Shown: positions 1,743 to 56,983 of the stretch, one piece after another | Position numbering within the stretch: position 1 is the first letter of the stretch | How the letters are laid out: each line of letters begins with the position of its first letter | Source: a bacterium | GTDB lineage: Bacteria; Lindowbacteria; 2-12-FULL-62-27 | Assembly (NCBI GenBank): GCA_016202645.1 | Contig: JACQOF010000003.1 | Location: 27,375-91,374, forward strand | Reading direction: 5' to 3' | Length of the DNA stretch: 64,000 nt | Position numbers and translations under genes: made by a program | Notes under the pieces: generated by a model | Database searches by the model: none | Told to the model about the DNA's origin: nothing | What the model saw: only the letters and a program-made list of their open reading frames with translations

Positions 1743-4700
1743 TCAGGCGGCTTTGCGGCCTCGCCAAACGCCGTAGCCGGCGAGGCCGAGGATGCCCAGG
1801 ACCACGAAGGTCGCGCCCCAGGCGCGGCCGCTGGAGCCGAAGGAGGGTTTTTTCTGCGCGGATGTTTTGATTTCCTCCTCCATCTCGTACCCCGCCACCA
1901 CCTCGGAAACCCGGCGGGCGACTTTCCGGACCGGGCGTTCGGCGGCCCAGGCGGCGGCAATTTTTTTCGACTCCTGTTCCGCTTCCCGCTGAGTTTTTCC
2001 TCGCGCCTGCTCTTGGATCTGTTGGAATTTCTGGACGATTTCCGGCGCGGGCAGGCCCGGAACGGAAAGGAGGGTATTGACCATGGCGTCGAGGAGGGGG
2101 TTGTTGCAGGTGTGCTCGCAGCAGGCGACGCCTTTTTCGATAACGCTGGCGACATATTCGCGCGCCAGGGTTTGGGCGATTTCGTCCTCGTTGGCCGGGT
2201 TCCAATAGTCCTTTCGAATGGCCTCAAGCATCCGCGCAGTGAGGGACTGGTAGGCCCATGGATTTTTTTGCGAGAAGAATTCCTTCATGTCGAGACCATA
2301 TTTGTCCTTCACATAGACCTCATAGACTTCCCGCCATTTCGCCTCGTCCACGACGTCGCGTTTCACCACCTGCCAGCCCCATAGATTTTCGACAAAATCG
2401 CCCATCCGCGCCGCGCCTTCGTAGCCTTCCGCTTTCATGGCGTCGATCCATTTGGGATTCAGATATCTGGATTTCATTTCGATTCCCATGACCCGTTCGA
2501 TCGAATCCATGCGGGGCTTGGAGGGATCCATGAGGTTCATGACGCGCAGTTCCGGCGACGTCCCGTCCAGTTCCTGGACGGCGCGGGCCAATCCGCCCGC
2601 ATACATAAAAAAGTCATCGTTATCGAGCGTTCCGTAGACGTTGGTCGAGCGGCTGTGAACCACCTGTTTGGTGCCTTTAAGCGTCATGCGGTAAACCTCG
2701 CCCATCGGCTCGCCCCAGAAACCGTGCCCGTAGCCGTGGCTCATCCGGGCCAGATATTCCTCGGCCAGCGCCGAATCCGATTCCCAGGATGCGCTTGCGC
2801 GCGCCATCCGCGCCACGTTCAGGTCATATCGGCCGGGCGGCTCATCGAAAATCCGGACGCCCGCGAACCGCGCCGCCAGTTCCGGTTCAACGCCCCGCCG
2901 GATCAGCTCAGCGCGTGTTTCAAGATAGTGTTTCCGGACGAAATTGTCCGGCTCGTCCAAGTCCTGGACCATCTCAACCGCCTTGTCGATTTTCTTCTCC
3001 AAATCCGCGAACCACTCATGGGCCGACCCGGAGATCACGATATCGATTCTCGGCCGGCCGAGCTGTTCCCGCGGAATGAGTTCCACGCCCTCGACTTTGC
3101 CCCACTCGTTCCAGATCGGTTTCGTCCCGAGTAAATACAGGATCTGCGACTGGAGGACGCCCTCATGCCGGATCGTTTCGGTACCCCAGATGACAAACGC
3201 CAGCTTGTCGGGATACTGCCCGGCATGTTTTTCGCGGTACTCGGAAATCAGCTCGTCAGTGAGGCGCTGGCCGAGGACCCAGGCGGCCTGTTTGGGAATT
3301 TTGGCGGGGTTAAAAGCATAGAAATTTTTACCGGTTGGAAGAGACTCGGGATTCCGCACCGGATCGTTTCCGGTGCCGGTCGGGATGTATTTTCCGGACA
3401 GCGCGGCCAACACGCTGGATATTTCCCGTCGCGCTCCGACACGCATGTTTCCTTCGTGGGTCTTCCCCCGCGCGGTCCGTTCGGCCGCGTTCAAGAATTT
3501 TTCAACTTCCAAAATCGCCTCGACCGTGGACGCCATCAGCGTGTCCGTGGGGGCCTGGCCGAGGGTGTGGAGTCCCGTCGGCATGTTCGTCGCTTTTAAT
3601 TCGTTCAAATATTCCTCGACTTCATGTAGAACCTCGTGGTTGAATGCCGCGGAATCCGGGGCGCCGGGGCGCGTGTCCATCCGATCCTCAATTCCCGCGT
3701 CCTTGGCGATCCCGAGATGCCGGATCTTGTCGCCGACGGCGTTCAGATACTGCCGGGCCAGTTCCGGATTTTTCTGGATCGCGACATCGTGGTCCGATAT
3801 CAGTTCCGAGAGTTCCGCGTACTCTTTGTAGAGACCGCCCTTTTGAAGCGGCGGGATCATGTGGTCCACGACGACCGCCGCGCCCCGGCGCTTGGCGACA
3901 ATGCCTTCACCCACGTCATCCACGATGTAGGGGTAAACGATGGGCAAATCCTGCGACATGACCTCCGGGTCGTCGTCCTCCTGCAGGCCCACTTCGGCGC
4001 CAGGCAGCCATTCCTGCGTGCCATGCGTTCCCGTATGGACCAAGGCGTGCGCGCCGAAGACGTGCTTGATCCAGAGATAGGCGGCGGCGTACTGGTGCGG
4101 CGGCGCAAGCTCCTTGTCGTGAACCATCTTCTCCATGTTCTGTCCCCACCCGCGGAGCGGCTGGGGCAGGAGGACCATATTGCCGTATCGCGCGGCGGGA
4201 ATCACGAAACACGGTTCGCGGGTTTCGGGATGGGCCGCCACCATGACGTTTGTCTGTTCCGCGGGTCCCCATGAGGCCAGCACTCTTTTTTGAAACGTGT
4301 CGGGAAGCTGGACGAAATATTTCTGATATTCCGCCACCGGCCAAAGAACCGCATCACCCGACCGGATCATCGCCTCCAGTTCGCCGGGGGCCCACGTCCC
4401 GACGTTGCGGCCGTAGGACAGGGCATTTTTGAGCATCAAGTCGGCGCCGGGTTTGCGGTCGCCCACGACGTAGCCGGCGGCCTTCATGGCCGAGAGGAGA
4501 TTTTCAAGGCTCTCAAAAACGTTAAGATAACTAGCGCCGATTTTTTCCTTGCCGGGCGGATAATTCCAGTACATGAAAGCGATTTTCTTTTCGGCGTTCG
4601 GCGTCGTCCGGAGCCGGTACCAGGCGTCAAACCGGTCGAGAAGCCGCCAGACCCGTTCCTGAATCGGCGTCCGGATCCGGATGCGAAACCCCGTCTCCTC

Positions 4701-5774
4701 ATCGCGGCCTTCCACCTGAACGCCCACGACGGTCGGAACGATCAAGCCCGCGATTTCCGGGACCGCCACCTGCCAGGCAACTTCGAACGGCGAGAGGCCC
4801 TTCGGCCCGCCGGGTTTCGGGACAAAATGGGCGTTGATGGCGTCAAACACAGGGACGCCGAGTTTTTCGAGCGTTTTGCCGGCTTCGAAATTGGAAAATT
4901 TAAACAGGAAAGAAATCACGCCGGCCAAGGGAGGAAAATCTTTGGCGTTCACAAACAGGCGTTCCACCGCTTCGGCCTCCGGATATCCGAATCCGGTCAC
5001 GACGTTGTACCCGCGATTTTCGAGACCCGCGATCAGGGTGTCTTCAAGCTGCGTCTGTCCGTTGTAATAGAACGACCGAAACGCAAGCAGACCGGCCCAG
5101 GGCGCGCCCTCCCGGTAATATCCGTTCTTCCGGTACCAGACTGCGTAACTGTCGAACGTCTCGAACACTTCTCCGCCACTGGGATGAGGGTGGTAGTATC
5201 CGAATTCCAGCGGCGGCCGCGGCGGCTGAACCTTCAGATCGTGATACCCGAACTGCGTTTTCAGGATCATCCGGAGCATGTTCATGCGGTTGACATGGCC
5301 GTCGAACTGCCAGTACGTCCTGACCTGATCGTCGTACCAGAGGCCGATGGAGGCATATTCGTCGTCGAGCCCGGCCGTCTGGCCGACCGCGTAAATTTTT
5401 GCGCCGCGCCGTTTAGCCGCGCGAAGCGGCGCCGACGGAAATCCGTCCTGCACGTCCGTTGCGATGCGGATGGTGTGAACGTCAAAAAAAATCAGGTCGG
5501 CCCGATCAAACTCGTTCTCGTCGTAAATTTCCAAATCAATCAAATCGGCCTTGTTCATCATGGAAATCCGGACGCTGTCCCGGAGGTCGGGGTGAGCCTG
5601 GTAAAAGGCCCTAGTCATGGAGGCGATGTCCGTGGAAACATAATTCCCGGCGACAAACAGAACATTGACGTGCCGGCCATGGTGGCCTTCGTGCGCCTCG
5701 GACAGCTGGAAAGGCAATAAGAAATAGGCGATGGGCAATAGGACGGAGAGAACCTGCCGCCGGAGCGCAGTCAT
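1743..5774 (-). CDS. CobN/Mg-chelatase H-subunit family protein with N-terminal signal peptide and C-terminal TM anchor (HmuS-like periplasmic chelatase/dechelatase)
   Basis: 1343 aa with the CobN-like core motif VHTGTHGTQEWLPG and length matching the CobN/ChlH family. The N-terminus is hydrophobic (LLPIAYFLLPF) and the C-terminus ends in a hydrophobic helix (ATFVVLGILGLAGYGVW). The last gene of a TonB/ExbBD operon. Confidence 0.85.
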   Translation of the reverse strand: MTALRRQVLSVLLPIAYFLLPFQLSEAHEGHHGRHVNVLFVAGNYVSTDIASMTRAFYQAHPDLRDSVRISMMNKADLIDLEIYDENEFDRADLIFFDVHTIRIATDVQDGFPSAPLRAAKRRGAKIYAVGQTAGLDDEYASIGLWYDDQVRTYWQFDGHVNRMNMLRMILKTQFGYHDLKVQPPRPPLEFGYYHPHPSGGEVFETFDSYAVWYRKNGYYREGAPWAGLLAFRSFYYNGQTQLEDTLIAGLENRGYNVVTGFGYPEAEAVERLFVNAKDFPPLAGVISFLFKFSNFEAGKTLEKLGVPVFDAINAHFVPKPGGPKGLSPFEVAWQVAVPEIAGLIVPTVVGVQVEGRDEETGFRIRIRTPIQERVWRLLDRFDAWYRLRTTPNAEKKIAFMYWNYPPGKEKIGASYLNVFESLENLLSAMKAAGYVVGDRKPGADLMLKNALSYGRNVGTWAPGELEAMIRSGDAVLWPVAEYQKYFVQLPDTFQKRVLASWGPAEQTNVMVAAHPETREPCFVIPAARYGNMVLLPQPLRGWGQNMEKMVHDKELAPPHQYAAAYLWIKHVFGAHALVHTGTHGTQEWLPGAEVGLQEDDDPEVMSQDLPIVYPYIVDDVGEGIVAKRRGAAVVVDHMIPPLQKGGLYKEYAELSELISDHDVAIQKNPELARQYLNAVGDKIRHLGIAKDAGIEDRMDTRPGAPDSAAFNHEVLHEVEEYLNELKATNMPTGLHTLGQAPTDTLMASTVEAILEVEKFLNAAERTARGKTHEGNMRVGARREISSVLAALSGKYIPTGTGNDPVRNPESLPTGKNFYAFNPAKIPKQAAWVLGQRLTDELISEYREKHAGQYPDKLAFVIWGTETIRHEGVLQSQILYLLGTKPIWNEWGKVEGVELIPREQLGRPRIDIVISGSAHEWFADLEKKIDKAVEMVQDLDEPDNFVRKHYLETRAELIRRGVEPELAARFAGVRIFDEPPGRYDLNVARMARASASWESDSALAEEYLARMSHGYGHGFWGEPMGEVYRMTLKGTKQVVHSRSTNVYGTLDNDDFFMYAGGLARAVQELDGTSPELRVMNLMDPSKPRMDSIERVMGIEMKSRYLNPKWIDAMKAEGYEGAARMGDFVENLWGWQVVKRDVVDEAKWREVYEVYVKDKYGLDMKEFFSQKNPWAYQSLTARMLEAIRKDYWNPANEDEIAQTLAREYVASVIEKGVACCEHTCNNPLLDAMVNTLLSVPGLPAPEIVQKFQQIQEQARGKTQREAEQESKKIAAAWAAERPVRKVARRVSEVVAGYEMEEEIKTSAQKKPSFGSSGRAWGATFVVLGILGLAGYGVWRGRKAA

Positions 5775-6121
5775 TTTTGCCCCTCCGGAACATAAATCAC
5801 ACGGCCGTCCGCCAGTTTATAGGCGACACCAAGCCGGAGGCCCTGGCCCTGAAGAGACTTGTCGGTCACCTTCTGAATTTTGACTTCCTTGCCTTTCTTC
5901 ACGATCACCTCAAGATTCCCCCGGGCGTCCTGTTTGGTGATCGTGACTTCCGTCTCGGGCGACAGAAGATCCATCAGCCGGTAGGCTGACACGAGGGCAA
6001 ACATGAGTCCGACCGCGAGGACCGTGGCCACGTCAAACAGATTGGCGACCATATCAAGCGGATTGTCATCGGCAACGTCTTCGGCGCCCGCCACGCGCCT
6101 TCGACCCAGAAATTTCATCAT
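5771..6121 (-). CDS. ExbD/TolR-like small membrane protein (DUF2149-like)
   Basis: The proposed start MMKF overlaps the upstream gene stop by ATGA. It has a single TM helix (VATVLAVGLMFALVSAY) followed by a soluble domain. It sits next to a MotA/TolQ/ExbB gene, the gene order seen in CobN-MotA-DUF2149 clusters. Confidence 0.55.
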   Translation of the reverse strand: MMKFLGRRRVAGAEDVADDNPLDMVANLFDVATVLAVGLMFALVSAYRLMDLLSPETEVTITKQDARGNLEVIVKKGKEVKIQKVTDKSLQGQGLRLGVAYKLADGRVIYVPEGQK

Positions 6122-6723
6122 CGCCCGCCGGGTTTTCCCGCCGCAGCCAGTTCGGCGAACAATTCCATGGTCCGGCGGTCCTGCGACGTCCATCGGGCCT
6201 TGTACTGGGACAACACATAGGCGACGCCCGCGATGAAGAGTCCGACGACGGTCGTGGTAAACGCGATGATCAACGCATTGGCCATCTTGTCCATTTCGCC
6301 TTCCGCCAAGGCCGCCAATGCCTGGCCCATCGGAATGAGCGTGCCCATGAGCCCGAGCATGGGACTGATCCGGACCAGGCGCCGGTGCCGGGCCAGCTCC
6401 CAGTTCAGCGCCTCTTCGCGCTCCTGCAGACGGTAGGCAATCTGAATTTCCGCCGAAACGGATGCCGGGAGATTCTGGATTGATTGCAAAAACCGCCGGA
6501 CCGCGGGAGACAACGCGGAGAGATCCGCGCCAGTTGAGAGGAACGCGGCGGCCTCGGCCGGCTCGGGGATGTTGACCGAGCGGCGTTTTAATCCTTCCGC
6601 CAATATCTCACCCATCCGAAAAATGATCACGCCAAACAGGGCGATCAGAATCGCCATGACCGGATAGAGGAGGGCCTCGGAAATCACATACAGAGCGGAC
6701 TGCAAAAGGGCCATGAGGTTCAT
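6118..6723 (-). CDS. MotA/TolQ/ExbB proton-channel family protein
   Basis: 201 aa with three TM helices and the C-terminal LIIAFTTTVVGLFIAGVAYV helix typical of ExbB/TolQ. It is paired with an ExbD-like gene. Confidence 0.75.
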   Translation of the reverse strand: MNLMALLQSALYVISEALLYPVMAILIALFGVIIFRMGEILAEGLKRRSVNIPEPAEAAAFLSTGADLSALSPAVRRFLQSIQNLPASVSAEIQIAYRLQEREEALNWELARHRRLVRISPMLGLMGTLIPMGQALAALAEGEMDKMANALIIAFTTTVVGLFIAGVAYVLSQYKARWTSQDRRTMELFAELAAAGKPGGR

Positions 6724-6735
6724 GGAATGTCCGTG

Positions 6736-7455
6736 TCAGCCGGCCGAAGCCCGACGATGTTTCCGAAATCCGGCCCAAAGACCCAGTCCAAAGAGGGCGG
6801 CGGCCGGTGCCGCCACCCGGATCAGCTCCCAACCGCTGACGCGGGATCCGGAATTGAGCAGTTCGGACAGCGCATAAATCTCTGACGCTTTGGCATACGC
6901 CGGCGCCACGGCCAGCGAAAGCAGAAAGTAGGCGGAAACCAACAGACACACAAGTCCCAGCGAATCGGCGCCCAATCGAAGCCGCGAGCTGCCGAGATAG
7001 ACCAAGCCAGACAGAACAAAAAACACAATGCCCAGGAGGCCGGCCAGCCGCACGGGTGACAGCGCCGACACAAACGCGGCCATCATGACCGACAGCAGAA
7101 GTGAGGACACGCAGACGGGGCACGGGGTCACGACCAGCCACGCCGCTCCTTTTTTCAGGCCCCCTTCGGAAGACCGGGTCCTTAGAAGGCTCCATCCCCA
7201 GACGCCCATGCCCAGCGCCATTAATATATGGAGAGAGACGCCGTTTTGAAGCAGGGGATAAACCCAGGACTGGACATGCCGGGTCTCCATCGCGCGTCCG
7301 GCGACGGCGGCGGCCACAAACACCGCCAGATACAGACCCGCGAGAGCCGTCAATTCCTTCGGCCCAAATTTCCCGGCCGCCGCGCCAACCCCGGCCTTCA
7401 CGGCGAAAAATCCAACGCTAAGACTTACGCCGATCAGAAAAAGTGTTTCATTCAT
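6736..7455 (-). CDS. polytopic membrane protein (DUF2162-like predicted transporter)
   Basis: 239 aa with about six TM helices and a conserved-looking TPCPVCV motif. It occupies the HmuT-like position in the locus. Confidence 0.5.
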   Translation of the reverse strand: MNETLFLIGVSLSVGFFAVKAGVGAAAGKFGPKELTALAGLYLAVFVAAAVAGRAMETRHVQSWVYPLLQNGVSLHILMALGMGVWGWSLLRTRSSEGGLKKGAAWLVVTPCPVCVSSLLLSVMMAAFVSALSPVRLAGLLGIVFFVLSGLVYLGSSRLRLGADSLGLVCLLVSAYFLLSLAVAPAYAKASEIYALSELLNSGSRVSGWELIRVAAPAAALFGLGLWAGFRKHRRASAG

Positions 7456-7463
7456 TGGAATCC

Positions 7464-9041
7464 CTATCCTCTGGGAACCATGCGTTGCCTGCCGCCGACC
7501 CCGGAAGGTTCAGCCGCCTCAACGCCGTTCGTTTTTTTCCGCCTGAAATAGGGGAAATACAGCAACGTGCCGGCCACAACCGCCAAAAACGTCAAAATTC
7601 CGGAAATGATGATTCCAGGATTGCCGATGCGGCTCCGATTCACATACGAGAACACGTGAACTTCGTAGAACGAATAGAACAAACTATTGTGGATGTTGCG
7701 GCGCGCCAGAATCTGCCCGGTCACAGGTGAAATATAAATTCGGGTCCGCTTCCAGTTCGTAAAATTCACCCGGTAGACCGGCAATTCCCCGAAGTAATCA
7801 TAGCCCTTCTGATACTGCCCTGTGACCCACTCAACGTCCCGAACATCTCCCGGTCCGTCGAAATCCCGTTGCGCGATGACCCGCGCGTCGTCCTCCGTCA
7901 ATCGCTGTAACCTGCGGCCCGTCTCCGCGCTGAAGATGTACGGATCCGAATCACCCCGGATGCGAACCCTATACACGGGCCGAGCTTCCAGTCCGTGGCC
8001 GTGCAAAACAACGTCCTCAATTCGTGGTGCATCCAGCGCCGCCGCTGATTGCCGCAAAAGTTCCGGCACTTGCCAGGGCATGATGCGCACCGCCGCGGTC
8101 GAGAGGGGCGGCAAGGGCGTTCGTATCCGGTGGACGATTTCATCCGGAGGCGGATCGGACTTTAGCATGCGGCTTTCGGCCACGCCACCCATGTTGCGGT
8201 TGGTGATCAGCGTAAATGCGATGCCGCCGACGATCCAGATCAGGACCTGGGCGGCCACCGCCCAGCCAAGCCAGACATGCGTTTTTCTCCAGATTGAATT
8301 CGCCTCCGCGGATTTCGAAAGATACGAACGCCAGAGAAACATGCCGGCGAGGACGGACACCAGCGACAGGACACTGAAAAACAAAACGCCCGGGTTGAAT
8401 TGGAGTTCGGGATTGACCCAGGCGAAAATATGGAGGTTCCAAATCAGCGAGAAGGCGCTCATGTAGACGTTCCGCCGGGAGATGATTTTCCCGGTGTACG
8501 GCGAAATGTACAGGCGCGTCTTTTTTGGGTTTGAAAAATTGACCCGATACACGGGCAGGTCCAGTCCGTAATCGCGCCCCTTCTGATGCCGGCGATAAAT
8601 CCACTCGACGCTGGTCACACCGCCTTCATCCGTATAATCCAGCCGGGCGATTTCGGCCGCCTCGGTTTCAGAAAACCGGGAGATCACACGTTCGGACGCG
8701 GCGTCGATCAATGCGGGCGTGTCGCTTCGCGCAAAGCGGACCAGGTAGACCGAGCGGCCGCTTAGGGGATGATTGAAAAATTGGATGTCTCGAATTTCTC
8801 CGGAAACGCCGGAGTCCGTTCCCAGGATTGAAGGGACACGGGAGGGATCCAGCCGGGCCGACTCGAACGAAACCGGCGGCGATTCAAATCCGCGGCTTTC
8901 ATACTGGCCGTTCATCTCATCCCGCGGGAGGAGCGCGAATCCCACGCCGGTGACAATCCAGATGACCACCGGGATCAACACGACCAAGCCCAGCCAATAA
9001 TGGATCTTCCGCCAATTGGCTTTGAGCGGCACCGGACTCAA
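7464..9041 (-). CDS. PepSY-associated TM-helix protein with two internal repeats
   Basis: The N-terminal RKIHYWLGL motif is seen again as WRKTHVWLGW, so the protein contains two PepSY_TM modules. Each module carries a PepSY-like periplasmic insert ending in PVYRVNF. Confidence 0.7.
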   Translation of the reverse strand: MSPVPLKANWRKIHYWLGLVVLIPVVIWIVTGVGFALLPRDEMNGQYESRGFESPPVSFESARLDPSRVPSILGTDSGVSGEIRDIQFFNHPLSGRSVYLVRFARSDTPALIDAASERVISRFSETEAAEIARLDYTDEGGVTSVEWIYRRHQKGRDYGLDLPVYRVNFSNPKKTRLYISPYTGKIISRRNVYMSAFSLIWNLHIFAWVNPELQFNPGVLFFSVLSLVSVLAGMFLWRSYLSKSAEANSIWRKTHVWLGWAVAAQVLIWIVGGIAFTLITNRNMGGVAESRMLKSDPPPDEIVHRIRTPLPPLSTAAVRIMPWQVPELLRQSAAALDAPRIEDVVLHGHGLEARPVYRVRIRGDSDPYIFSAETGRRLQRLTEDDARVIAQRDFDGPGDVRDVEWVTGQYQKGYDYFGELPVYRVNFTNWKRTRIYISPVTGQILARRNIHNSLFYSFYEVHVFSYVNRSRIGNPGIIISGILTFLAVVAGTLLYFPYFRRKKTNGVEAAEPSGVGGRQRMVPRG

Positions 9042-10468
9042 GCCTCCAGCCCCATCACCTTCAAACGGCGCATGCCCCCCAAGGCAAATCCGAGAGCGAG
9101 GATGGACAGGAGGGCCGCGCCGGGCAAGATACGTCTGCCCATGGACAAGACAGATTCTTCTCGGAACTCAAACGCCGGCAGAGCGTCCAAGTCTGACACC
9201 GTCACCAGTTCCTGTTTAAAAATCTTCGGTTCGAGAAGCTCCTTCATCCGCGCCTGATAGACCAGGGCCTGGTCTTCAAACCTGTTGTGCCTGGCGATAC
9301 CGGTTCCGGCGATGTCGTTTAATCCTTCCTGCAGAACCAGGGCCGGCGAAAGAAAGGCCATGCGGAGCTGGAGGGTTTGCCGACGGCGCAATTCGGACTC
9401 ATGGGCGTCGACCAGCGTGTTGAGCTCACGGTCGGTCAGTTTCTGCACGGCGAAATATTTATTGAAAAACTGTTTGAAGTCCGGAATGTCATGGCCTGGC
9501 TCAAGGTAGAACCGTTCCAGAACCTTGTCGCCGCCAGCGTTGATCCGATTGCCGACATCCCGTGCCGCGACGGCAAGATTCACCCGGGAGGGCGGAGGCG
9601 CCAGTATCCCCAGAAGCGTCCCCATCACCGATGGCAGAACCAAGACCAACGTCAACCAAGCTCCGGCCAGCACCGTCGCATTGTACACCGCCGACCGGCC
9701 CAGGCCGTTGACCCAAATGCTGAGCGACATCCAAAACGCCAGATAGGCCAGAAGCAGAAACAGGGTCAGTCCAAACTCGCCGGGGAATTTGGCCACGGAA
9801 ACGCCCGCGAGGAAAAGGCCGATCCCCAAAGACGACGCCGATACGCCCCAGAGGAGGAGCAATCGCGCCGCCGCTCTCGACAGCGCCAGATGCGCCAGGC
9901 CCGTTGTCTGGGACAAAACCAAGGGCAAAATTCCCCGGTCCCGGTCGCCGGCGACGATCCCAAAACCCAGCGCGAGGGCCAGGAGGGGGAGAAGGTAGAC
10001 CATCACAAAAGCGGCGTCAAACCCTCCCACCTGGAGATTCAAGGGATTTTCGATGTCCTGGGAAAAATAATTCCGGCCCTCCCAGAATTGGGCCCGGTTC
10101 AACAGGTTCAGCCGCGCCACTCCGTTCAACAAGTCGCTCTGGCCGATGGACAACGGCGCAAGGGGCGCCGGCGGAAGAACCGCCTGCCGGCTGCCCGAAT
10201 ACAACGAAAAAACTGACGTGGTGCGGGGGTCGTCCTCTCCCGGAGGCAATTTCTCCCGGCCGGTTTCCAGGGATTCAAACCGCGCGCGAGTGTTGGCAAA
10301 TTTTTCCGCGTCTTTCGCCATCAGAAACCGGCCTTGTTTGTCCAAACGTTCCGATGCGGTCTGTCCTCCAAACACGCCCACAATCAGGAGGACAGCGGCC
10401 GCGGCGAGAGCCGGAATCGTGGCGGCTTCTCGCCATGTCCGTTTCAGTTCAATCCGAAAGAGCCGCAT
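9038..10468 (-). CDS. ABC-2 type transporter permease (DUF3526-like)
   Basis: 476 aa with an N-terminal TM helix, a large periplasmic loop and a C-terminal cluster of about five TM helices. Its start overlaps the PepSY gene stop by ATGA. Confidence 0.55.
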   Translation of the reverse strand: MRLFRIELKRTWREAATIPALAAAAVLLIVGVFGGQTASERLDKQGRFLMAKDAEKFANTRARFESLETGREKLPPGEDDPRTTSVFSLYSGSRQAVLPPAPLAPLSIGQSDLLNGVARLNLLNRAQFWEGRNYFSQDIENPLNLQVGGFDAAFVMVYLLPLLALALGFGIVAGDRDRGILPLVLSQTTGLAHLALSRAAARLLLLWGVSASSLGIGLFLAGVSVAKFPGEFGLTLFLLLAYLAFWMSLSIWVNGLGRSAVYNATVLAGAWLTLVLVLPSVMGTLLGILAPPPSRVNLAVAARDVGNRINAGGDKVLERFYLEPGHDIPDFKQFFNKYFAVQKLTDRELNTLVDAHESELRRRQTLQLRMAFLSPALVLQEGLNDIAGTGIARHNRFEDQALVYQARMKELLEPKIFKQELVTVSDLDALPAFEFREESVLSMGRRILPGAALLSILALGFALGGMRRLKVMGLEA

Positions 10469-10478
10469 CGGTTGGCGA

Positions 10479-11894
10479 TCAGTCGACGTTCAAACGGCGC
10501 GCGGAGTTTCGCATGAACCAGAGGCCCGCCATCAGCCATGCCGAGAGCATCGCCAGGGACCTCCAAGCCTGGCCGATCGCATGATCGACCCCGAACGATG
10601 GATACTCAAACGCCGGCATGGACGCCCAGAGATCCGGCCCGCCGCGGTAATCCGAGTCCCATTTTTCCTGGCGTTTGGCGTTCCGGAGGACATCATCATT
10701 CAAGCGCCGAATAAAAGCGCGGCGATACTGTTCCGCCTTGAAGGCGAAATCCCGATGGACCGACAGATCCGTGCCGGCCAACGCCATGGACGCCAGGCGC
10801 AAAGGCTGGAGGGGTGATGCCAGACCCGTAACCAAGTGCAGATCCCTCTGTCTTTCGAGAATGCCGAAGAGTTCCGAAAATCTCCTGTCAAAAATCTGGT
10901 CTCCGTGCCGTTCTCCCTCGATGAGACGAATTCCGCTGAAGGACACCGGCAACTCCTCGATCGTCTTGGCCCCGTAGAGCCGGAGTGCGTTTGCCTTGTC
11001 CAATTTCATTGAATCCGGCCTCTGGGTTTCTTTTGAGATCTGATCGGAAAATTCCGCGGCGAGGGGCGTTGGGGAGACCGCCTTGGACAGCGCCACGGCG
11101 AATCGCGGCACAAGAACGCAGGCGGCGAGCCATATTCCCAGCAACGCGAGCAGGGTGTTCCGTGGTTTGGTCATCCTCGCCGAAACTCCCAAAACCACGG
11201 CAATCCAGAAAGCGATATAGAACGCGTAGGCGAGACTGAGCCACCCCAGACGCAGGAGAACGTCCATACGGGTGCCAGGCTCGGCCAGAAACAGGGACGC
11301 GGCGATGGCCGCGGTCCAGGGCAGAATCGTCCAGACCAGCAACGCGCGAAGGAATCCCATCCATTTCCCCCACGCCAGAATTTCCGGAGAGACTCCCTGA
11401 CTCAACGCCAATTTCAGCACGCGGCTCTCCCGTTCGCCAGAGAACGACGCGTAAGAAAGGAAGATAATCAGCAGCGGCGCGATGACCTGCAAAATAAACG
11501 CGGGACTCAATTCTCCGAACCTCTGCATCACGCCGGCGTCCATGGCCGGGCGGTATTTGAAGTCATTCTGTTTGTGAGCTTCGAGCCACACGGTGGCCCC
11601 GACCCAAGGCTCGATGCCGCGGTCAAAGACGGCCAGGGCCTGCGCGGGCTTGAAGGCGTAGACTCCGTAATGAGCGGCGCTGTGCGGGTTCTTGATACCC
11701 TGTTCCAGAAACTGCCGGCGATTGTCGGCCCATGCCGCGGAGCGTTCCTGGCCCAGCCGGAGGGCATACCGGCCGCCGGCGAAGGCCGACGCGAGGGTCA
11801 GGATTAGGAAGACCCACCCCAGAACGCGGGCGCGCCCGTCTCTTCTTAACGATTCGCCCTCGCGGGCGGCGATGACGCGCAGGATTACCGGCAC
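10479..11894 (-). CDS. ABC-2 type transporter permease (paralog of the preceding gene)
   Basis: 471 aa with the same architecture as the neighbouring permease. It lies directly downstream of the ABC ATPase. Confidence 0.55.
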   Translation of the reverse strand: MPVILRVIAAREGESLRRDGRARVLGWVFLILTLASAFAGGRYALRLGQERSAAWADNRRQFLEQGIKNPHSAAHYGVYAFKPAQALAVFDRGIEPWVGATVWLEAHKQNDFKYRPAMDAGVMQRFGELSPAFILQVIAPLLIIFLSYASFSGERESRVLKLALSQGVSPEILAWGKWMGFLRALLVWTILPWTAAIAASLFLAEPGTRMDVLLRLGWLSLAYAFYIAFWIAVVLGVSARMTKPRNTLLALLGIWLAACVLVPRFAVALSKAVSPTPLAAEFSDQISKETQRPDSMKLDKANALRLYGAKTIEELPVSFSGIRLIEGERHGDQIFDRRFSELFGILERQRDLHLVTGLASPLQPLRLASMALAGTDLSVHRDFAFKAEQYRRAFIRRLNDDVLRNAKRQEKWDSDYRGGPDLWASMPAFEYPSFGVDHAIGQAWRSLAMLSAWLMAGLWFMRNSARRLNVD

Positions 11895-11895
11895 T

Positions 11896-12597
11896 TCAGT
11901 TCGCCATGTGATCGAGATAGATTTTTTCCAATTCGGAATGCCCGAGTTTCTCGGTATCGAGGACGGTGTTCATCTTTCCCTCCCGCATGATTCCCACGCG
12001 GTGTCCGCTTTCCTTGGCCCTGAAGAGGTCGTGCGTGGCCATCAGGACCGCGATTCCCTGATCGCCGAGTTTCCGGAGCAGGAGGCTAAACTCGTTGCTC
12101 GCCTTGGGATCAAGGCCGGATGTGGGCTCGTCCAACATGAGCGCCCGCGCGCGCTTGCTGAGCGCCAGCGCGATCCCGACTTTCTGACGCATGCCTTTGC
12201 TGTACGTGCCGACGGGCCGCCCGTGTGCCTCGTCCTGCAGTCCCGCGTCCCGCAGAAAAGCGCTTAAGTCACCCGGGGCGTAGTCGAATCCGGCCAAGGC
12301 GCTGAAGTATCCAAGATTTTCCGTGCCGGTCATCGAGGAATAAAAATTCACCTGTTCCGGAATATAGGCGATGAGCCGCCGCGCCTCCAGAGGGTTCTTT
12401 GCCACCTCGCGCCCGTCGACGAAGGCCTGGCCGCCGGTGGGTTCGACAAAATGGAGGAACAGATGGATGGTCGTGGTTTTCCCGGCGCCGTTTGCGCCCA
12501 GGAGACAGAACACTTCCCCTTCCTTGACCTTGAGATCCAATCCATCCAACGCGAGCACGTCGCCGTACCGTTTTGTTAGGCTTTTAGCTTCGAGCAT
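11896..12597 (-). CDS. ABC transporter ATP-binding protein
   Basis: Walker A GANGAGKTT, signature motif YSKGMRQKVGIA and Walker B LMLDEPTSGLD are all present. Confidence 0.9.
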   Translation of the reverse strand: MLEAKSLTKRYGDVLALDGLDLKVKEGEVFCLLGANGAGKTTTIHLFLHFVEPTGGQAFVDGREVAKNPLEARRLIAYIPEQVNFYSSMTGTENLGYFSALAGFDYAPGDLSAFLRDAGLQDEAHGRPVGTYSKGMRQKVGIALALSKRARALMLDEPTSGLDPKASNEFSLLLRKLGDQGIAVLMATHDLFRAKESGHRVGIMREGKMNTVLDTEKLGHSELEKIYLDHMAN

Positions 12598-12606
12598 GCG
12601 AATTCC

Positions 12607-14544
12607 TCATTTCTTCCACGTGTAGGTCAGCCAATGGCTCCGCTGCTGATGGGCAGCCCCGGTGGATTCGACGTTGACTTCATCAAACAGGTTTTCCGTC
12701 CGGAAACTCCATTCGCCGGCGCGACCGCCGAAGGGCCGGTAGTTGAAAATGAGATCGGTGATCGTCGCCTGGGCCAGTTTGTCCGTCGACGTGTTCGAAT
12801 TCCAGCGTTTCCCGATGAACCGGACGACGGAAACCACGTCCAAGGCGTCGCTGATGGCGTAGCGCACCGTGGCGGTGGCTTTCTTGTCCGCGGCTTTGTC
12901 AAATTCTCCCTGAACCACCGTTCCCGTATCCTCAATGTTAGACTGCGTGAACGTCGCGGTGAGCCCGACCGAAAGGCGGCGGGTCAGATCGTAATTTCCC
13001 TCTATATCAAACCCTTGGGTCACGGCCCTGTTCGCGTTCAAATTCGGTCCTGTGGGGTTTCCCGTTGCGAACTGCCGGACGATGAGCTGGTTGTACCGGG
13101 TCTTGAAGTACGTGACGTCCCCGCGAAATTTGTTGTCCGGGGAGGAATACTCAACCCCGACGTCCCATCCCTTTGAGAATTCCGGCTTCAGGCGGGAGTT
13201 TCCGGATACGCCCGGGAAAATGAGATCAAAAATCGTGGGATCGCGGAATCCGGTTCCAAACGACCCGTGAAACCGCGTCTGCTCGTCGATTGGACGGGAA
13301 GCCGACGTCCGGAACGTCCGGGCCACCAACTTCGGCAAATAGGCGATTCCGCTGTCCGGCATAATGTGATCTGTCCGGCCTCCGAGGGTCAGCGTCCACC
13401 CTTTCCAGTCCACCAAGTCCTGCATGTACATCGACCGTTTCACGATGGTCTGGGCGTAGGGCGTGGCTCGTTTGACGTCCTTGCCCACGTCGATCTCTCC
13501 CGCCCAGCCGAAAGTCAACGTGTGATCTTTGACGCGGTAGTTATTCTGGAAATCGATCGTGGACGTATGGTTAATACGGGTGAGGTTGCTGGATCCTTTT
13601 GGGTTCCCGAAATCAGTATTTTCCAGTCTCTCCTCATAGTACCCATACATCATGGAATAATCCCAGCGGTCAGTGACCGCCCGGGAGAGCTTGATTGAGC
13701 TTGTGATCTGATCCATGTACGAAAAGATTTTCGTGGTGTCGGCGCCGCCGAAGATGTCGAGGCCCGCCACCATGTTCACATAGGAGACGGACGCGTTCAG
13801 GTCATGATCGTAGAAAGGCAGGGGGTAGGAGACCGACGCCGACATGTTCTTGGTCAGGAACAAGTCATTTTCCAGTCCCGAGCTGTCCGTATTCCCGGAA
13901 TTCCCGGAGGACGAGTAGCCATCGCTGTTTTCATAGTAAGCGCTCAAGGTATATCTGGCTTCGCCGGCCGATCCCCGGAGCCCCAAGGAAGACCTCCGTG
14001 TCCTCCAACTACCCACTTCCATCATGGCATCCATCGAAGGTTTTACGGTCCCGCGTTTGGTGATGATATTGATCACGCCGGACATTGCGTTGGATCCATA
14101 GAGCGTGCTCATGTTTCCGCGGACGATTTCAATCCGCTCGATATTCTCGACCGAAAAGGACGGTATCATGGCGTCGCCGCCAAGAGCGCGGCGCCACGGC
14201 ACGCCGTCGACGAGAGTCAGCACATGCTTTTGGTTGCCTCCCCGGAGACTAAAATTGGTCTGCGTGCCGGGACTGCCAAACCGGGTGACGTCGACGTACG
14301 CCGACCTGCGCAGGACGTCCTGAATCGACCTCGATTTTTGCATTTCAATATCCTTGGCCGTAATCACCGTCACCGCCGCGCCGACTTTGTCCCTGGACAC
14401 CGGCACGCGGGACGCTGTAACGACAACTTCAGGCAGGCCATAGGCCTCCTCTTCGGGTTCGACTGCCCGACTTGCGGCCGGGAAGAGCACCGCGCACCCC
14501 AGCGCCACGAGGGGCGCAATCCATTTTGCTCTAAAAAAGTTCAT
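12607..14544 (-). CDS. TonB-dependent outer-membrane receptor (BtuB/heme-receptor-like)
   Basis: A signal peptide is followed by a plug domain with TonB-box-like PEVVVTASR. The C-terminus ends in the aromatic residues LTYTWKK typical of the barrel. The start MNFFRAKW was chosen because it overlaps the tonB stop by ATGA. Confidence 0.85.
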   Translation of the reverse strand: MNFFRAKWIAPLVALGCAVLFPAASRAVEPEEEAYGLPEVVVTASRVPVSRDKVGAAVTVITAKDIEMQKSRSIQDVLRRSAYVDVTRFGSPGTQTNFSLRGGNQKHVLTLVDGVPWRRALGGDAMIPSFSVENIERIEIVRGNMSTLYGSNAMSGVINIITKRGTVKPSMDAMMEVGSWRTRRSSLGLRGSAGEARYTLSAYYENSDGYSSSGNSGNTDSSGLENDLFLTKNMSASVSYPLPFYDHDLNASVSYVNMVAGLDIFGGADTTKIFSYMDQITSSIKLSRAVTDRWDYSMMYGYYEERLENTDFGNPKGSSNLTRINHTSTIDFQNNYRVKDHTLTFGWAGEIDVGKDVKRATPYAQTIVKRSMYMQDLVDWKGWTLTLGGRTDHIMPDSGIAYLPKLVARTFRTSASRPIDEQTRFHGSFGTGFRDPTIFDLIFPGVSGNSRLKPEFSKGWDVGVEYSSPDNKFRGDVTYFKTRYNQLIVRQFATGNPTGPNLNANRAVTQGFDIEGNYDLTRRLSVGLTATFTQSNIEDTGTVVQGEFDKAADKKATATVRYAISDALDVVSVVRFIGKRWNSNTSTDKLAQATITDLIFNYRPFGGRAGEWSFRTENLFDEVNVESTGAAHQQRSHWLTYTWKK

Positions 14545-15323
14545 TCGACGTTCACTCCTTTGTTCAAACTGAATCGGATGGGTACCAAGCATTCGCTGGT
14601 TATCTCGACCGGCCCTCTCCGGGCCGGGATAAATTTCCATTGTTTCACGGCGCGCTGCGCCGCGAGGTCCAAAATCCGGTAACCGCTGCTGACATCGACG
14701 GTCACAGCCATCGCCTCTCCTTTTTCCGAAACCGCAACCCGCAAGATCACCCGGCCCTCGTACCATGACCGCTGGGCGGCCAGGGGGTACTCGGGTTTGG
14801 GATTGTTCAAATAGGCGGGCGCGGACGAAACGTGTATTTCTTGGGCCTCACTCAACTGCATCCCCGTTGCCGGCGCCGGATCCGATACGGCCGTCGGCGC
14901 ATCTTCGGTCATTTTTTCCTGGACGGGTTCCGTCGCCGGTTCCCGGATCGGTTCCTGCACAGGTTCCGGGGGGATTTGTTCGACTTCCATCACCAACATT
15001 GCCGGGACTTCCGGGACCGGCGGTTCGGCCGGCGGGATTTCCACCGGGTTGACGGCCTCCTCCACGACGGCCGGAAGAGGCTCCGGCCTGGGTTTGGGAA
15101 CGGGCTTTTTCCGCGGGAGCACAACCGGCGTGGCGACAAGTTGGAGGGACATGCGTCCAACGGCGCTTTCCATCGGAATTTGGACAGGTGAAAACGGCCA
15201 GAACCAGAACAACAAAAAGGCGTGGAACCCCGCGGAGATCACCGTCGCCGTCCACATGGCGCCGGGCGGCTGATACAAAGGGACGGCGCGGCCGCGTCCG
15301 TTGGCATGCAGAACTTCGATCAT
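14541..15323 (-). CDS. tonB: energy transducer TonB
   Basis: N-terminal TM helix, a Pro-rich spacer (PVPKPRPEPLP, EPPVPEVP) and a C-terminal TonB domain. It lies downstream of exbB-exbD. Confidence 0.8.
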   Translation of the reverse strand: MIEVLHANGRGRAVPLYQPPGAMWTATVISAGFHAFLLFWFWPFSPVQIPMESAVGRMSLQLVATPVVLPRKKPVPKPRPEPLPAVVEEAVNPVEIPPAEPPVPEVPAMLVMEVEQIPPEPVQEPIREPATEPVQEKMTEDAPTAVSDPAPATGMQLSEAQEIHVSSAPAYLNNPKPEYPLAAQRSWYEGRVILRVAVSEKGEAMAVTVDVSSGYRILDLAAQRAVKQWKFIPARRGPVEITSECLVPIRFSLNKGVNVE

Positions 15324-15324
15324 G

Positions 15325-15750
15325 TCAGCGTTTCACCGTCGTTTCCAGGGAAATGCGGACCAGCCCCGCCGTCCGGCAGGCGTCCAGAACTTCAATGACA
15401 ATCCCGTAGTCCGCCGCCCGGTCGGCGTCAACGTAGACTTCCTCCGTATTCGGCTCGGCCGACCGATAAGCGGTGATGCGCCGCAGGAGGTCATTTTTGT
15501 CGACCCGGACCCGGTTCATATAAATTTCCCCGGCGGACGTGACCGTAAACGTCAGGAGGTCCTTTTTTTCCTTGATGGACGTCAGAGCCTGCGGCAGTTC
15601 CACTTTGATCCCGCGGTGGACCGTCATCGTGAGCATGCTGTAGATCAGCACCGTCAGAATCAGAAAGATGGTGTCGATCATCGGGATCATGTCGATGCGC
15701 GCTTCGCGGGCCTCCAAGTGCGCTCCAAAGAACCTCCGCCGGATTTTCAC
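15325..15750 (-). CDS. exbD: biopolymer transport protein ExbD/TolR
   Basis: 141 aa with the characteristic N-terminal IDMIPMIDTIFLIL and a single TM helix. Confidence 0.85.
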   Translation of the reverse strand: MKIRRRFFGAHLEAREARIDMIPMIDTIFLILTVLIYSMLTMTVHRGIKVELPQALTSIKEKKDLLTFTVTSAGEIYMNRVRVDKNDLLRRITAYRSAEPNTEEVYVDADRAADYGIVIEVLDACRTAGLVRISLETTVKR

Positions 15751-16385
15751 GCCGCTTCCGTCTTTCCAATGCGGGTTCGATTCTCCTCCGACTCATGGAT
15801 GGCGATTTCCATGTTCGACAAGGCGGATTCCATGCGGTGCCGGGCGCGCGTAACCTGGGACTGAAAGAAGTTGTAGAAGATGAGGGTTGGCATGGCGATG
15901 GCAAGGCCGAAAACAGTCGTGATGAGGGCCTGGGAAACGCCCGACGCCACCTGGCTGACGTTGTCGACGTTGCCGCCGAGGGCGTCGAAGGCGAAAACGA
16001 TTCCGACAACGGTGCCGAATATTCCCAGGAGCGGCGAGAGGGAGATGATGGTTTCGAAGACCGTCAAATATTTTTTCATGAGGATATACCGTTCCGAGGA
16101 CGCCTGATCGAGCGCCACAAAGAGGCTCGTGTGCGGCCCGCCGGCCCGGAGGCCTTCGTGGAACATGGAAAGCACGTAGTCCCTCCCCCCGGCACAGACC
16201 TTGAGCGCCTCCTCCCGCCGGCCGTCTCCGACCAGTTGGAGCGCGCGGCTGACCGCATCGGGCTGTTCCCGGCGCCAGATGCGGATCCAGAACCAGATCC
16301 GTTCCAGGGCGAAGGCCAGCGACAGGAGCGAACACATGAGCAGGGGCCACATCACCGGCCCCCCTCTTTGGAAATACTCGATCAT
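15747..16385 (-). CDS. exbB: biopolymer transport protein ExbB/TolQ
   Basis: MotA/TolQ/ExbB family with three TM helices and the ALITTVFGLAIAMP motif. The start was set at the second ATG (MIEYFQ) because the first ATG lies inside a promoter/operator palindrome. Confidence 0.8.
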   Translation of the reverse strand: MIEYFQRGGPVMWPLLMCSLLSLAFALERIWFWIRIWRREQPDAVSRALQLVGDGRREEALKVCAGGRDYVLSMFHEGLRAGGPHTSLFVALDQASSERYILMKKYLTVFETIISLSPLLGIFGTVVGIVFAFDALGGNVDNVSQVASGVSQALITTVFGLAIAMPTLIFYNFFQSQVTRARHRMESALSNMEIAIHESEENRTRIGKTEAA

Positions 16386-16399
16386 CCTCTTCCGCCTTT

Positions 16400-16480
16400 C
16401 GTCAAACAGTAAATTGCAATATACTCGCATTTTCATCGCCCGGTGTCAACTAAAATGCGAGTTCTTTGCAAGAGCCGCAA
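16400..16480 (-). promoter_or_regulatory. candidate promoter (TTGACA -35) with two inverted copies of a 20-bp operator-like motif, TTGCAA-N5-CTCGCATTTT
   Basis: Plus 16414-16433 reads TTGCAATATACTCGCATTTT. Plus 16452-16471 reads AAAATGCGAGTTCTTTGCAA, the reverse complement of the same motif differing only in the central 5 nt. A third half-site-like repeat, GCAATCTCGCAAT, lies just beyond. A TTGACA hexamer sits on the minus strand between the two copies. Confidence 0.35.
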
Positions 16481-16580: not shown

Positions 16581-17384
16581 CTACACCAGCAGGGCGAGTC
16601 CCAAGGCGGCGCAGTAGAGGGCGAAGTAGTGGAATTTGGCGGACTGAAGGATTTTGAGCAGGACCCGGATGGCCAGGACGCCGACCGCGCCCGCCACCGC
16701 CGCGGAACCCGCGTAGAGCGCGAGATTCACGCCCGATCCGAGTTCCCCGGCGATGTCGCGGGCCTCCAGGAGTGTCGCTCCGAGGATGGCCGGGATGAAG
16801 AGCAGGAAAGAAAACCTTGCTGCCAAGTCCGGGCGGAGGCCGAGGATCAGCGCGGCGGAAATCGTCGCGCCCGACCGGGACACGCCTGGAAAGATTGCAG
16901 CGCCTTGTAGAAGGCCGATGAATACCGCATCCCAAATTCCCATTTGAGCGAGGGACCGGTCCCGGGTTTTCCGAAAGACCGTCGCACCCATGATGAGTCC
17001 TCCCGCTAGAAATCCGAAGGCCACCGCGCGCAGGTCGGAAAACGCCGCTTCGACCGCCGATTTCAAACCGAAGCCGATTGCCGCCGTGGGGACGCAGGCG
17101 ATCAGGATGAGCAGAAGCAATTTTCCCGGCGAGTCGGAGCGCCAGTCCGCTTTCAGCCACCGGCCGGGGTGGACCAGTTCGCCGGCCATGTCCGCAACGT
17201 CCCGCCGGTAGACCGCGAGAACCGCAACCAGCGTTCCGAGATGGAGAACGATGTCGAACGCGAGAGGCGGGTTGGAGAATCCGAGCCACACCTGCGCGAC
17301 GGCCAGGTGCCCGGATGAACTCACGGGCAGGAATTCGGTGACGCCCTGGATGACAGCCAGGACCAAGGCGATCCAGAGTGTCAT
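16581..17384 (-). CDS. uppP: undecaprenyl-diphosphate phosphatase
   Basis: 267 aa polytopic membrane protein with BacA/UppP motifs VSSSGHL and PGVSRSG. Confidence 0.9.
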   Translation of the reverse strand: MTLWIALVLAVIQGVTEFLPVSSSGHLAVAQVWLGFSNPPLAFDIVLHLGTLVAVLAVYRRDVADMAGELVHPGRWLKADWRSDSPGKLLLLILIACVPTAAIGFGLKSAVEAAFSDLRAVAFGFLAGGLIMGATVFRKTRDRSLAQMGIWDAVFIGLLQGAAIFPGVSRSGATISAALILGLRPDLAARFSFLLFIPAILGATLLEARDIAGELGSGVNLALYAGSAAVAGAVGVLAIRVLLKILQSAKFHYFALYCAALGLALLV

Positions 17385-19673: not shown

Positions 19674-19676
19674 CCC

Positions 19677-56907: not shown

Positions 56908-56983
56908 GGCGCCATCGTCTAGGGGCCCAGGACACCGCCCTCTCAAGGCGGGAACACGGGTTCAAATCCCGTTGGCGCTACCA
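56908..56983 (+). tRNA. tRNA-Glu (anticodon CUC), CCA encoded
   Basis: A hand-folded cloverleaf was checked for acceptor stem, U8 and D, anticodon and T arms. The anticodon loop reads CTCTCAA. The sequence is closely similar to E. coli tRNA-Glu, and the T-arm reads GGTTCAAATCC. Confidence 0.85.

Follow-up and report, generated by a model that had tools for sequence, protein, structure and literature searches.

What does a bacterium do with an operon that joins a TonB-dependent receptor (TBDR) and a CobN-like chelatase to a putative reductase, two proton-channel pairs and an ABC transporter? Such an operon occupies the minus strand at 1743-16385 of the window, the 64,000-nucleotide stretch of Lindowbacteria contig JACQOF010000003.1 analysed here. 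The hmuYRSTUV locus of Bacteroidota encodes HmuY, a TBDR, the CobN-like protein HmuS, the hypothetical membrane protein HmuT, the MotA/TolQ/ExbB-like HmuU and the DUF2149 protein HmuV, and a first-pass annotation of the window had described the operon as an expanded locus of this type. We consider, with a probability of about 0.5, that the operon provides a full route to strip the metal from an imported metal-macrocycle chelate, under a Fur-family-type (Nur-box-like) operator.

The operon consists of 12 consecutive open reading frames (ORFs). They encode ExbB, ExbD, TonB, the TBDR, an ABC-2-type ATPase, two ABC-2 permeases, a PepSY_TM protein, a DUF2162 membrane protein, a MotA/ExbB-like protein, a DUF2149 protein and the CobN-like protein, in this order. 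The junctions were computed with the best-supported gene starts. Each was either a 4-nt overlap (five: GTGA, ATGA, TTGA, ATGA and ATGA) or a gap of at most 12 nt (1, 9, 1, 10, 8 and 12 nt); the first-pass annotation had stated this for nearly all of them. The start of exbB is most likely at 16385 and not at 16436, since the 16385 start (MIEYFQRGG) is conserved in the related contig L086. Promoter-like matches (7 against 4.8 expected) and terminator-like matches (23 against 20.8 expected) were not enriched in the array, and none lay within any junction. The same gene order was found in one identical contig and three related contigs (L002, L086 and L087), which together with the tight junctions and the background level of promoters and terminators indicates one operon and not separate units. 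The annotation had counted 13 genes. Its own list also sums to 12, and 13 fits only L087, in which the PepSY gene is split in two. A hidden Markov model (HMM) check confirmed all of its Pfam assignments one for one.

HmuS carries a signal peptide and terminal transmembrane (TM) helices and faces the periplasm, as described for its family by Nath et al. (2025). The CobN-like protein of the window (1743-5774, minus strand; 1343 aa; CobN-Mg_chel, 2.4e-302) had been read as exported and anchored, and we examined both ends by hydropathy and the -3/-1 rule. In the N-terminus, MTALRRQ-VLSVLLPIAYFLLPF-QLSEA|HEG, the n-region is followed by an h-region of 15 residues, positions -3 and -1 hold small residues, and cleavage is predicted after SEA. 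The C-terminus has a hydrophobic helix, WGATFVVLGILGLAGYGVW, followed by RGRKAA. Both a signal peptide and a TM anchor are thus predicted. The two features had been called unusual; they are a published trait of HmuS and occur in about 90% of 116 full-length homologues (a hydrophobic segment at the N-terminus in 107 and at the C-terminus in 101). A twin-arginine translocation (Tat) signal was considered for the RR of the n-region and rejected, as the RR is not kept in the close relatives P0001-P0003. The mature N-terminus is rich in His (HEGHHGRH, residues 28-35), and the corresponding segments are HEGHADRH, HEGHQDRH and HEGHEEPH in P0001-P0003 and HESHSHNHAHSHS in P0009. The pattern of the window clade is HEGHxxxH, and the segment was absent from the Brocadia and Desulfobacterota homologues examined. 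It looks like a metal-binding tail.

The best match of the CobN-like protein in the PDB was the HmuS de-chelatase 9d26 (1.4e-135), followed by true CobN (1.6e-125) and then ChlH. HmuS markers were read from HMMER alignments and from an alignment of 82 relatives. H538, E577 and D1208 of HmuS are conserved in the window protein (H584, E623 and D1053) and in the relatives. The position of HmuS His-1209 is Asp in all 82 relatives (Asp1054 in the window), giving the CobN-type LDxDD; CobN itself has LDSDD. HmuS His-254 of the HGR motif has no counterpart, as it aligns to Phe291 or Leu290 and no clade has His there. Opposite the axial Met-79 of HmuS, the window protein has His100, and most relatives have Met. 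The Met-rich insertion of about 120 residues is absent, HmuS 697-891 has no counterpart, and the protein is shorter than HmuS (1343 vs 1469 aa). A Cx4C motif at residues 1218-1223 is common to HmuS and missing from cytoplasmic chelatases. It lies in the family-wide motif GVACC(E/D)HTCNNP (residues ~1215-1226), of which the Cys pair is shared with HmuS. A GYEMEE-type acidic motif at residues ~1290-1300, about 25 residues before the anchor, is also family-wide.

The window protein resembles CobNST and ChlHID in its whole-length PF02514 domain and in the LDxDD at the site-2 position. In contrast to these systems, it is exported and tethered, no AAA+ chelatase partner gene was found in the locus, and it scores below all CobN/BchH equivalog cutoffs of NCBIfam (best score 919 bits against a cutoff of 1619). 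By its sequence, the protein does not appear to be HmuS sensu stricto, because His-254 and the Met-rich insertion are absent, Asp replaces His-1209, HmuY is missing and the receptor is BtuB-like; homology and the shared architecture hold. The earlier description as an hmu-type locus is therefore sound in that the core is homologous to hmu R, S, U and V. Its heme sense is not supported, for these same reasons and as the closest clades stand under cobalamin riboswitches and carry corrinoid or cobalt genes.

The substrate of the route enters through the receptor in our reading, and the TBDR (12607-14544, minus strand) was examined next to its energising system. It has Pfam Plug and barrel domains, a signal peptide and the TonB box PEVVVTA. 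Its best NCBIfam match was TonB-B12, at 208 bits over the full length but below the cutoff. In the PDB, BtuB was the best match (3.7e-30), and the heme receptor PhuR matched over the plug only (6.7e-14). Heme receptors carry a heme-ligand His in the FRAP-NPNL-type segment. The segment between FRDP and GNSRLKPE of the window receptor has no His. No ORF for HmuY was found in the operon, and the junctions leave no space for one. The families of a complete canonical system adjoin the receptor on the minus strand: exbB (15747-16385; Pfam MotA_ExbB, 2.7e-28), exbD (15325-15750; Pfam ExbD, 4.5e-27), which has the GTGA overlap with exbB, and tonB (14541-15323; Pfam TonB_C, 1.8e-18; TIGR01352).

FoxB is a di-heme reductase of the inner membrane. 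The PepSY_TM protein of the operon (7464-9041, minus strand; PepSY_TM, 6.4e-21; PepSY, 1.3e-17; cytochrome b561 below threshold) has TM helices at residues 12-40, 213-239, 256-281 and 471-497 and two PepSY domains. Each half of it has an invariant His14 and His204 at TM ends in the half-repeat alignment. The first-pass annotation had seen a tandem or duplicated PepSY protein; four TM helices with two PepSY domains are the ordinary FoxB architecture and not a duplication. On this architecture, the protein is predicted to be a FoxB-type di-heme reductase. It shares with FoxB and FpvG, which are inner-membrane reductases of ferric-siderophore pathways, the set of four TM helices, the pair of periplasmic PepSY domains, the four conserved TM His and the co-encoded TBDR; the logic of periplasmic metal release by reduction is also that proposed here for the window. 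It differs in length (525 aa vs 382), in having no detectable pairwise match to the solved structures (a PDB sequence search gave no match) and in its partner, which is the CobN-like enzyme in the window and siderophore-handling proteins for FoxB and FpvG. The gene is present in all four members of the window clade. Divergent PepSY_TM genes adjoin the module in three other loci (L018, L026 and L053), in Sphingomonadales and Steroidobacteraceae, and lie near it in L028 and L030. A second palindrome-like element, GTTACGTTACATAACCGTAA, was also seen at 7130-7160 of L018 (Altererythrobacter), directly upstream of its PepSY_TM gene; it appears to resemble the GTTAT...ATAAC type of Zur box. A search for a classical Fur box in L018 found none.

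A second proton-channel pair beside ExbBD-TonB had been proposed, and our comparison agreed with it. The MotA/ExbB-like, HmuU-like subunit (6118-6723, minus strand; MotA_ExbB, 2.3e-13) shares 31% identity with the canonical ExbB of the operon over 75 aa only, and the DUF2149, HmuV-like protein (5771-6121, minus strand; Pfam DUF2149, 3.2e-28) has no significant similarity to ExbD. The MotA-like protein has the conserved motifs GP.LGL.GT.IPMG and AFTTTVVG. DUF2149 has a single TM helix with the conserved Asp of ANLFD at its start (47 sequences), as in ExbD, TolR and MotB. Because a canonical ExbBD-TonB system co-occurs with the module in the operon here and lies near it in several other lineages (loci that have both include L002, L005, L012, L029, L034, L086 and L087), the gene content argues that MotA/DUF2149 may serve the chelatase module rather than the receptor. 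The neighbouring DUF2162 membrane protein (6736-7455, minus strand; Pfam DUF2162, 7.5e-36) has an invariant intramembrane PCPVC, Lys20 and His76 in the alignment. PCPVC lies at a helix break in its AlphaFold 2 (AF2) model (pLDDT 77.7), and fold matches of DUF2162 were non-specific.

The hmuYRSTUV loci of B. thetaiotaomicron and P. gingivalis resemble the window in that a single operon encodes a TBDR, an exported and anchored CobN-like protein, a MotA/ExbB-like protein and DUF2149. DUF2162 with its PCPVC occupies the gene position of HmuT, whereas the Bacteroidota-type proteins at this position in Dyadobacter lack the motif. The gene order also differs, T-U-V-S in the window against S-T-U-V in hmu. 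The window adds its own ExbBD-TonB, the FoxB-type reductase, the ABC-2 exporter and a different operator, and the statement that the ABC and PepSY genes are not part of the described hmu loci was confirmed.

The ABC genes are an ATPase (11896-12597; ABC_tran, 2.5e-26; DrrA subfamily, 5.3e-53) and two permeases (A, 10479-11894; B, 9038-10468; both ABC2_membrane_2 with DUF3526), all on the minus strand. The trio is shared by the window and L087 at 77% identity in the same order. In L002, a DUF4198-Peripla_BP_2 gene takes its place. L086 has no such trio. The trio is also free-standing in other genomes, in unrelated contexts. These results indicate that the ABC-2/DUF3526 trio is a facultative cassette. 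The ABC module of the described architecture is thus present and joined to the operon, but it is not a constant part of it. A PDB sequence search with the DUF3526 permease gave no match, and literature searches on DUF3526 and DUF2162 returned no papers. In Aquisphaera giovannonii (L088), a weak cobalamin-riboswitch-like nhmmer profile match (12434-12551, 3.2e-05) was observed just 3' of a free-standing DUF3526 trio and 5' of a DUF4465 gene.

We then examined how the operon may be regulated. The inferred operon promoter has a -35 element, TTGACA, at 16444-16449 on the minus strand, and L086 has the same TTGACA...TATAAT layout. Two operator-like sites accompany it. Site A (ATTGCAA-TATAC-TCGCATT, 16413-16431) overlaps the -10/+1 region, and site B (AATGCGA-GTTCT-TTGCAAG, 16454-16472) lies just upstream of the -35 element. 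Both are of the 6-5-6 TTGCAA type with one perfect TTGCAA hexamer each. The promoters of L086 and L002 have an exact ATTGCAACTTATTTGCAAT (TTGCAA-N5-TTGCAA) at the equivalent position. The Nur box of Streptomyces, bound by a nickel-responsive Fur homologue, has the consensus tTGCaa-N5-ttGCAA. This 6-5-6 pattern is exact in L086 and L002 and partial twice in the window promoter. Over the 1.66 Mb of loci, 18 occurrences of the relaxed pattern were counted, where 4.5 are expected. In the window clade, Altererythrobacter and two Dyadobacter, which span three phyla, sites precede the first cluster gene by 28-62 nt. To our knowledge, Nur occurs in Actinobacteria only.

The pattern is not an n-1-n Fur box. 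A sigma-54 reading of TTGCAA-N5-TTGCA was rejected because the essential GG is missing. The window gave no match to the cobalamin riboswitch (RF00174), either at the gathering threshold or at E<=1, and none was found in L002, L086 or L087. In the two Dyadobacter loci, L042 (3030-3633, 5757) and L074 (5160, 5893), TTGCAA-N5-TTGCA(A/T) was observed upstream of the TBDR of the module and of a gene for a MerC-family membrane protein. In Dyadobacter crusticola (L042), the MerC-linked site is additional to the one at the cluster. The Dyadobacter sites suggest a small metal regulon with a common operator type.

Relatives of the operon were collected by a scan of one genome per species. It gave at least 596 candidate stretches, and statements on loci rest on the 80 best. 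MotA, DUF2149 and CobN occur together in nearly all 80 loci, usually with a TBDR next to them, and DUF2162 is added in several clades. Among the phyla are Planctomycetota, Acidobacteriota, Pseudomonadota, Desulfobacterota, Nitrospirota, Bacteroidota and Verrucomicrobiota. Related clusters also occur in cultured strains, namely Altererythrobacter fulvus KACC 19119 (L061), Dyadobacter crusticola DSM 16708 (L042) and Desulfonema magnum 4be13 (L040). A neighbour-joining tree placed the window and L002 as sister to a Brocadiales clade. The lineage of the window is poorly represented, as no species representative exceeded 53% CobN identity in the genome scan. When metagenomes were scanned with the MotA-like protein, the L002 contig was the only one recovered, from which the window clade appears rare.

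In Brocadia, Nitrospirota, Desulfonema and Trichlorobacter, Rfam searches placed cobalamin riboswitches directly upstream of clusters. A riboswitch profile (nhmmer on a core from the Rfam matches together with a regular expression, checked against Rfam hits and non-hits) raised the number of riboswitch-linked loci to about 24. Of the 10 loci in the Brocadiales clade, 7 have the riboswitch; among the other three, L011 has no upstream sequence, L004 has no adjacent receptor and L013 gave no match. Genes counted in the riboswitch-linked loci were DUF4430 (7), CbiK (9), CbiM (5) and CobQ (5). Peripla_BP_2-CbiZ fusions or related periplasmic binding proteins gave matches in 18 loci. These riboswitch clusters (Brocadia, Jettenia, Desulfonema magnum, Trichlorobacter and Nitrospirota) are uncharacterised and form the sister clade, with 48-53% CobN identity to the window. 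They share the core, often DUF2162, and BtuB-like receptors with it, and some have ExbBD-TonB nearby. The window differs in having no riboswitch, DUF4430, CbiZ, CbiK or CbiM, and in its PepSY_TM reductase and protein-operator site.

A BtuF-like periplasmic binding domain fused to CbiZ (adenosylcobinamide amidohydrolase) was observed in P0064, in L051 (7530-9683) and in 17 further loci. In P0064 the fusion extends into the CobN-like domain itself, and in Desulfobacterota such fusions are placed between DUF2149 and the CobN-like gene. These fusions hint at extracytoplasmic corrinoid remodelling.

Other relatives stand under other metals. A Verrucomicrobiota metagenome-assembled genome (L065, 4630-14090) has NikM/PDGLE, a DUF1559 protein, a TBDR, MotA, DUF2149, the CobN-like gene and NikR in a row and, judged by this gene content, is a nickel-linked version of the module. 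PA1922-PA1925 of P. aeruginosa belongs to the Zur regulon. It has the same gene types (TBDR, CobN-like, MotA/ExbB-like and DUF2149) and is induced by metal starvation, and its function is unknown. In contrast to the window, it has a Zur box and zinc regulation, and it lacks DUF2162, the PepSY and ABC genes and a dedicated TonB. For the P. gingivalis hmu operon, B12-box elements have been reported. These results indicate that the CobN-like module is used under at least four metal regimes, among which biochemical tests exist for heme alone.

How could the parts act together? We propose that ExbB-ExbD-TonB would energise the BtuB-like receptor and bring the chelate into the periplasm. The FoxB-type di-heme PepSY_TM protein would carry electrons across the inner membrane and reduce the bound metal. 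The membrane-tethered CobN/HmuS-like enzyme would bind the macrocycle on the periplasmic side and free the metal, as a class I chelatase working in reverse like HmuS. The stator-like MotA/DUF2149 channel may give conformational energy, in the role that AAA+ partners have for cytoplasmic CobN and ChlH. DUF2162 may move the freed ion across the inner membrane via its intramembrane PCPVC, and the optional ABC-2/DUF3526 pump could clear the metal-free ligand. We infer all of these catalytic and energetic steps, whereas gene content, operon structure, synteny, homologies, conserved residues and regulatory motifs were observed directly. The steps are drawn from the biochemistry of HmuS, which is periplasmic and needs reduced heme from an electron donor that is unknown, from FoxB and from the pyoverdine pathway. 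The latter recycles its apo-ligand via the ABC-type pump PvdRT-OpmQ.

Several results weigh against this proposal. The operator copies of the window are degenerate, with 2 and 3 mismatches, and 1.7 such sites are expected by chance per 64 kb. With Fur and NikR of E. coli and PerR of B. subtilis as queries, tblastn gave no regulator for the window or its close relatives, and the only genes it recovered were a Fur-like one in L031 and NikR in L065. The ABC trio is missing from L086, the closest relative (84% CobN identity). Purified soluble HmuS works without HmuTUV, and the proton channel is therefore not strictly required for catalysis. The biochemistry of the family is confined to members from Bacteroidota. 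Finally, Ni(II) would need no reductase.

The cargo bears on the same question. A Co-corrinoid is a possible cargo, for which phylogeny, receptor type and the CobN-type site speak; the lack of a riboswitch and of B12 genes in the clade speaks against it. Fe-heme is tentative to the same degree. It has the HmuS precedent and the need for a reductase in its favour, and the failure of the HmuS markers, the BtuB-like receptor, the non-Fur operator and the B12-linked sisters against it. A Ni chelate is a weaker candidate, consistent with the Nur-type box, the His-rich N-terminus, DUF4198 in L002 and the NikR-linked homologue. Some other chelate is improbable. Summed, these estimates make a cargo other than heme more likely than heme.

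Three other explanations were compared with metal stripping from an imported chelate. The operon might be an expanded hmuYRSTUV-type heme system, in which the PepSY_TM protein reduces imported heme, an HmuS orthologue de-chelates it, Fe(II) is taken up and the ABC pump exports protoporphyrin IX (PPIX). HmuS is indeed the top solved-structure match and has the same topology, the position of its axial Met-79 is Met or His family-wide, and PPIX export has been proposed for P. gingivalis. HmuS also requires ferrous heme and a membrane electron donor that is unidentified, and PepSY_TM proteins are iron-associated reductases. The enzyme, however, lacks His-254 and the Met-rich insertion and has the CobN-like Asp for His-1209 in 82 of 82 relatives. 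Along its full length the receptor matches BtuB; heme receptors match it in the plug only, and its FRAP-NPNL-type segment has no His. HmuY is absent, the operator is not an n-1-n Fur box, and the sister clades are B12-regulated. We regard this explanation as doubtful. A second explanation is import of the intact cofactor, in which the CobN-like protein would only be a high-affinity periplasmic protein that binds or hands off a tetrapyrrole (corrinoid), and DUF2162 with MotA/DUF2149 would form an importer driven by the proton motive force (pmf) that replaces BtuFCD, with the metal kept. The cobalamin riboswitches before homologous clusters in Brocadiales, Nitrospirota, Desulfobacterota and Trichlorobacter, their DUF4430, Peripla_BP_2-CbiZ fusions, CobQ and CbiK, and the BtuB-like receptor fit this scheme, and the literature proposes HmuTUV as an inner-membrane heme transporter with HmuS as shuttle. 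Yet the window clade has neither the riboswitch nor B12 genes, and the chelatase active-site residues are strictly conserved, which is unexpected for a mere binding protein. The Zur- and NikR-linked homologues make the metal and not the cofactor the commodity, and metal release with disposal of the ligand better accounts for a reductase and an exporter. Intact import is thus unlikely.

The operon could also be a mosaic, a TBDR-CobN operon into which the ABC-2/DUF3526 trio, perhaps along with the PepSY gene, was inserted as an unrelated passenger and to which it is not functionally coupled. The absence of the trio from L086, its replacement in L002 and its occurrence alone in unrelated contexts are consistent with passengers. 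A 9-nt gap on one side and a 4-nt overlap on the other nevertheless couple the cassette translationally to its neighbours, L087 retains it at 77% identity in unchanged order, and the PepSY gene is present in 4 of 4 clade members and recurs independently beside the module in Sphingomonadales and Steroidobacteraceae. Of the three, uncoupled passengers seem the least probable to us.

The surroundings of the operon were also inspected. The hemB gene noted earlier as nearby is located correctly (ALAD, 3.3e-147; 19677-20687), but its proximity carries no evident weight. It lies on the opposite strand behind two unrelated genes, uppP and an FG-GAP gene. On the strand of the operon, uppP (BacA; 16581-17384) is the immediate upstream neighbour. 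On the other strand, 3 nt separate the end of the FG-GAP/ASPIC repeat protein gene from hemB (18144-20687 for both), and the pair may be co-transcribed. Between the stop of the cobN-like gene and the promoter of the next gene are the perfect palindromes TTTTGATATATATCAAAA (1694-1711) and TACTCGCGAGTA (1681-1692), which sit just upstream of a promoter-like TTGACA-17-TATGCT at 1677-1649. They may be the operator of the downstream AAA_14/DUF4143 ATPase gene (521-1642). An AAA_14/DUF4143 gene also neighbours the L002 locus. This was judged a coincidence, since the two proteins share only 24% identity and the copy in the window is preceded by a promoter of its own. Further away, a 986-aa protein (31181-34141) has an MMPL transporter domain fused to a C-terminal cyclic-nucleotide-binding domain, which is uncommon. 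Two tRNA genes lie at 56908-56980 and 58624-58696, and rpoC lies at 58743-63056.

These results bear on a wider family. The CobN-like/MotA/DUF2149 core could be a general, pmf-driven periplasmic reverse chelatase, in which a stator-type channel replaces the AAA+ motor and the regulon is retuned for each metal (B12 riboswitch, NikR, Zur, Nur-like box, iron/heme), with the window form stripping Co or Ni and not heme Fe. We consider this joint claim improbable as it stands. If it were true, the window operon would be the most complete known form, equipped with a transmembrane heme reductase and a ligand exporter of its own, and the source of Co or Ni would be environmental tetrapyrroles (corrinoids, possibly F430).

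We know of no enzyme other than HmuS that removes iron from intact heme without oxygen. In the literature of 2025-2026, the electron donor of HmuS and the roles of HmuT, HmuU and HmuV are open. A FoxB-type reductase in the translationally coupled unit of the enzyme would be a concrete candidate for the electron conduit of HmuS-type enzymes. A full ExbB-ExbD-TonB system beside MotA/DUF2149 argues that the latter pair is not simply the energiser of the receptor, as it is currently drawn. The window operon is a rare, elaborated variant of a widespread and barely studied family. The occurrence of HmuS-like exported chelatases extends beyond Bacteroidota and beyond heme; they stand under B12, nickel, zinc or Nur-box-type control depending on the lineage, and their current annotation as "cobaltochelatase CobN" is misleading.

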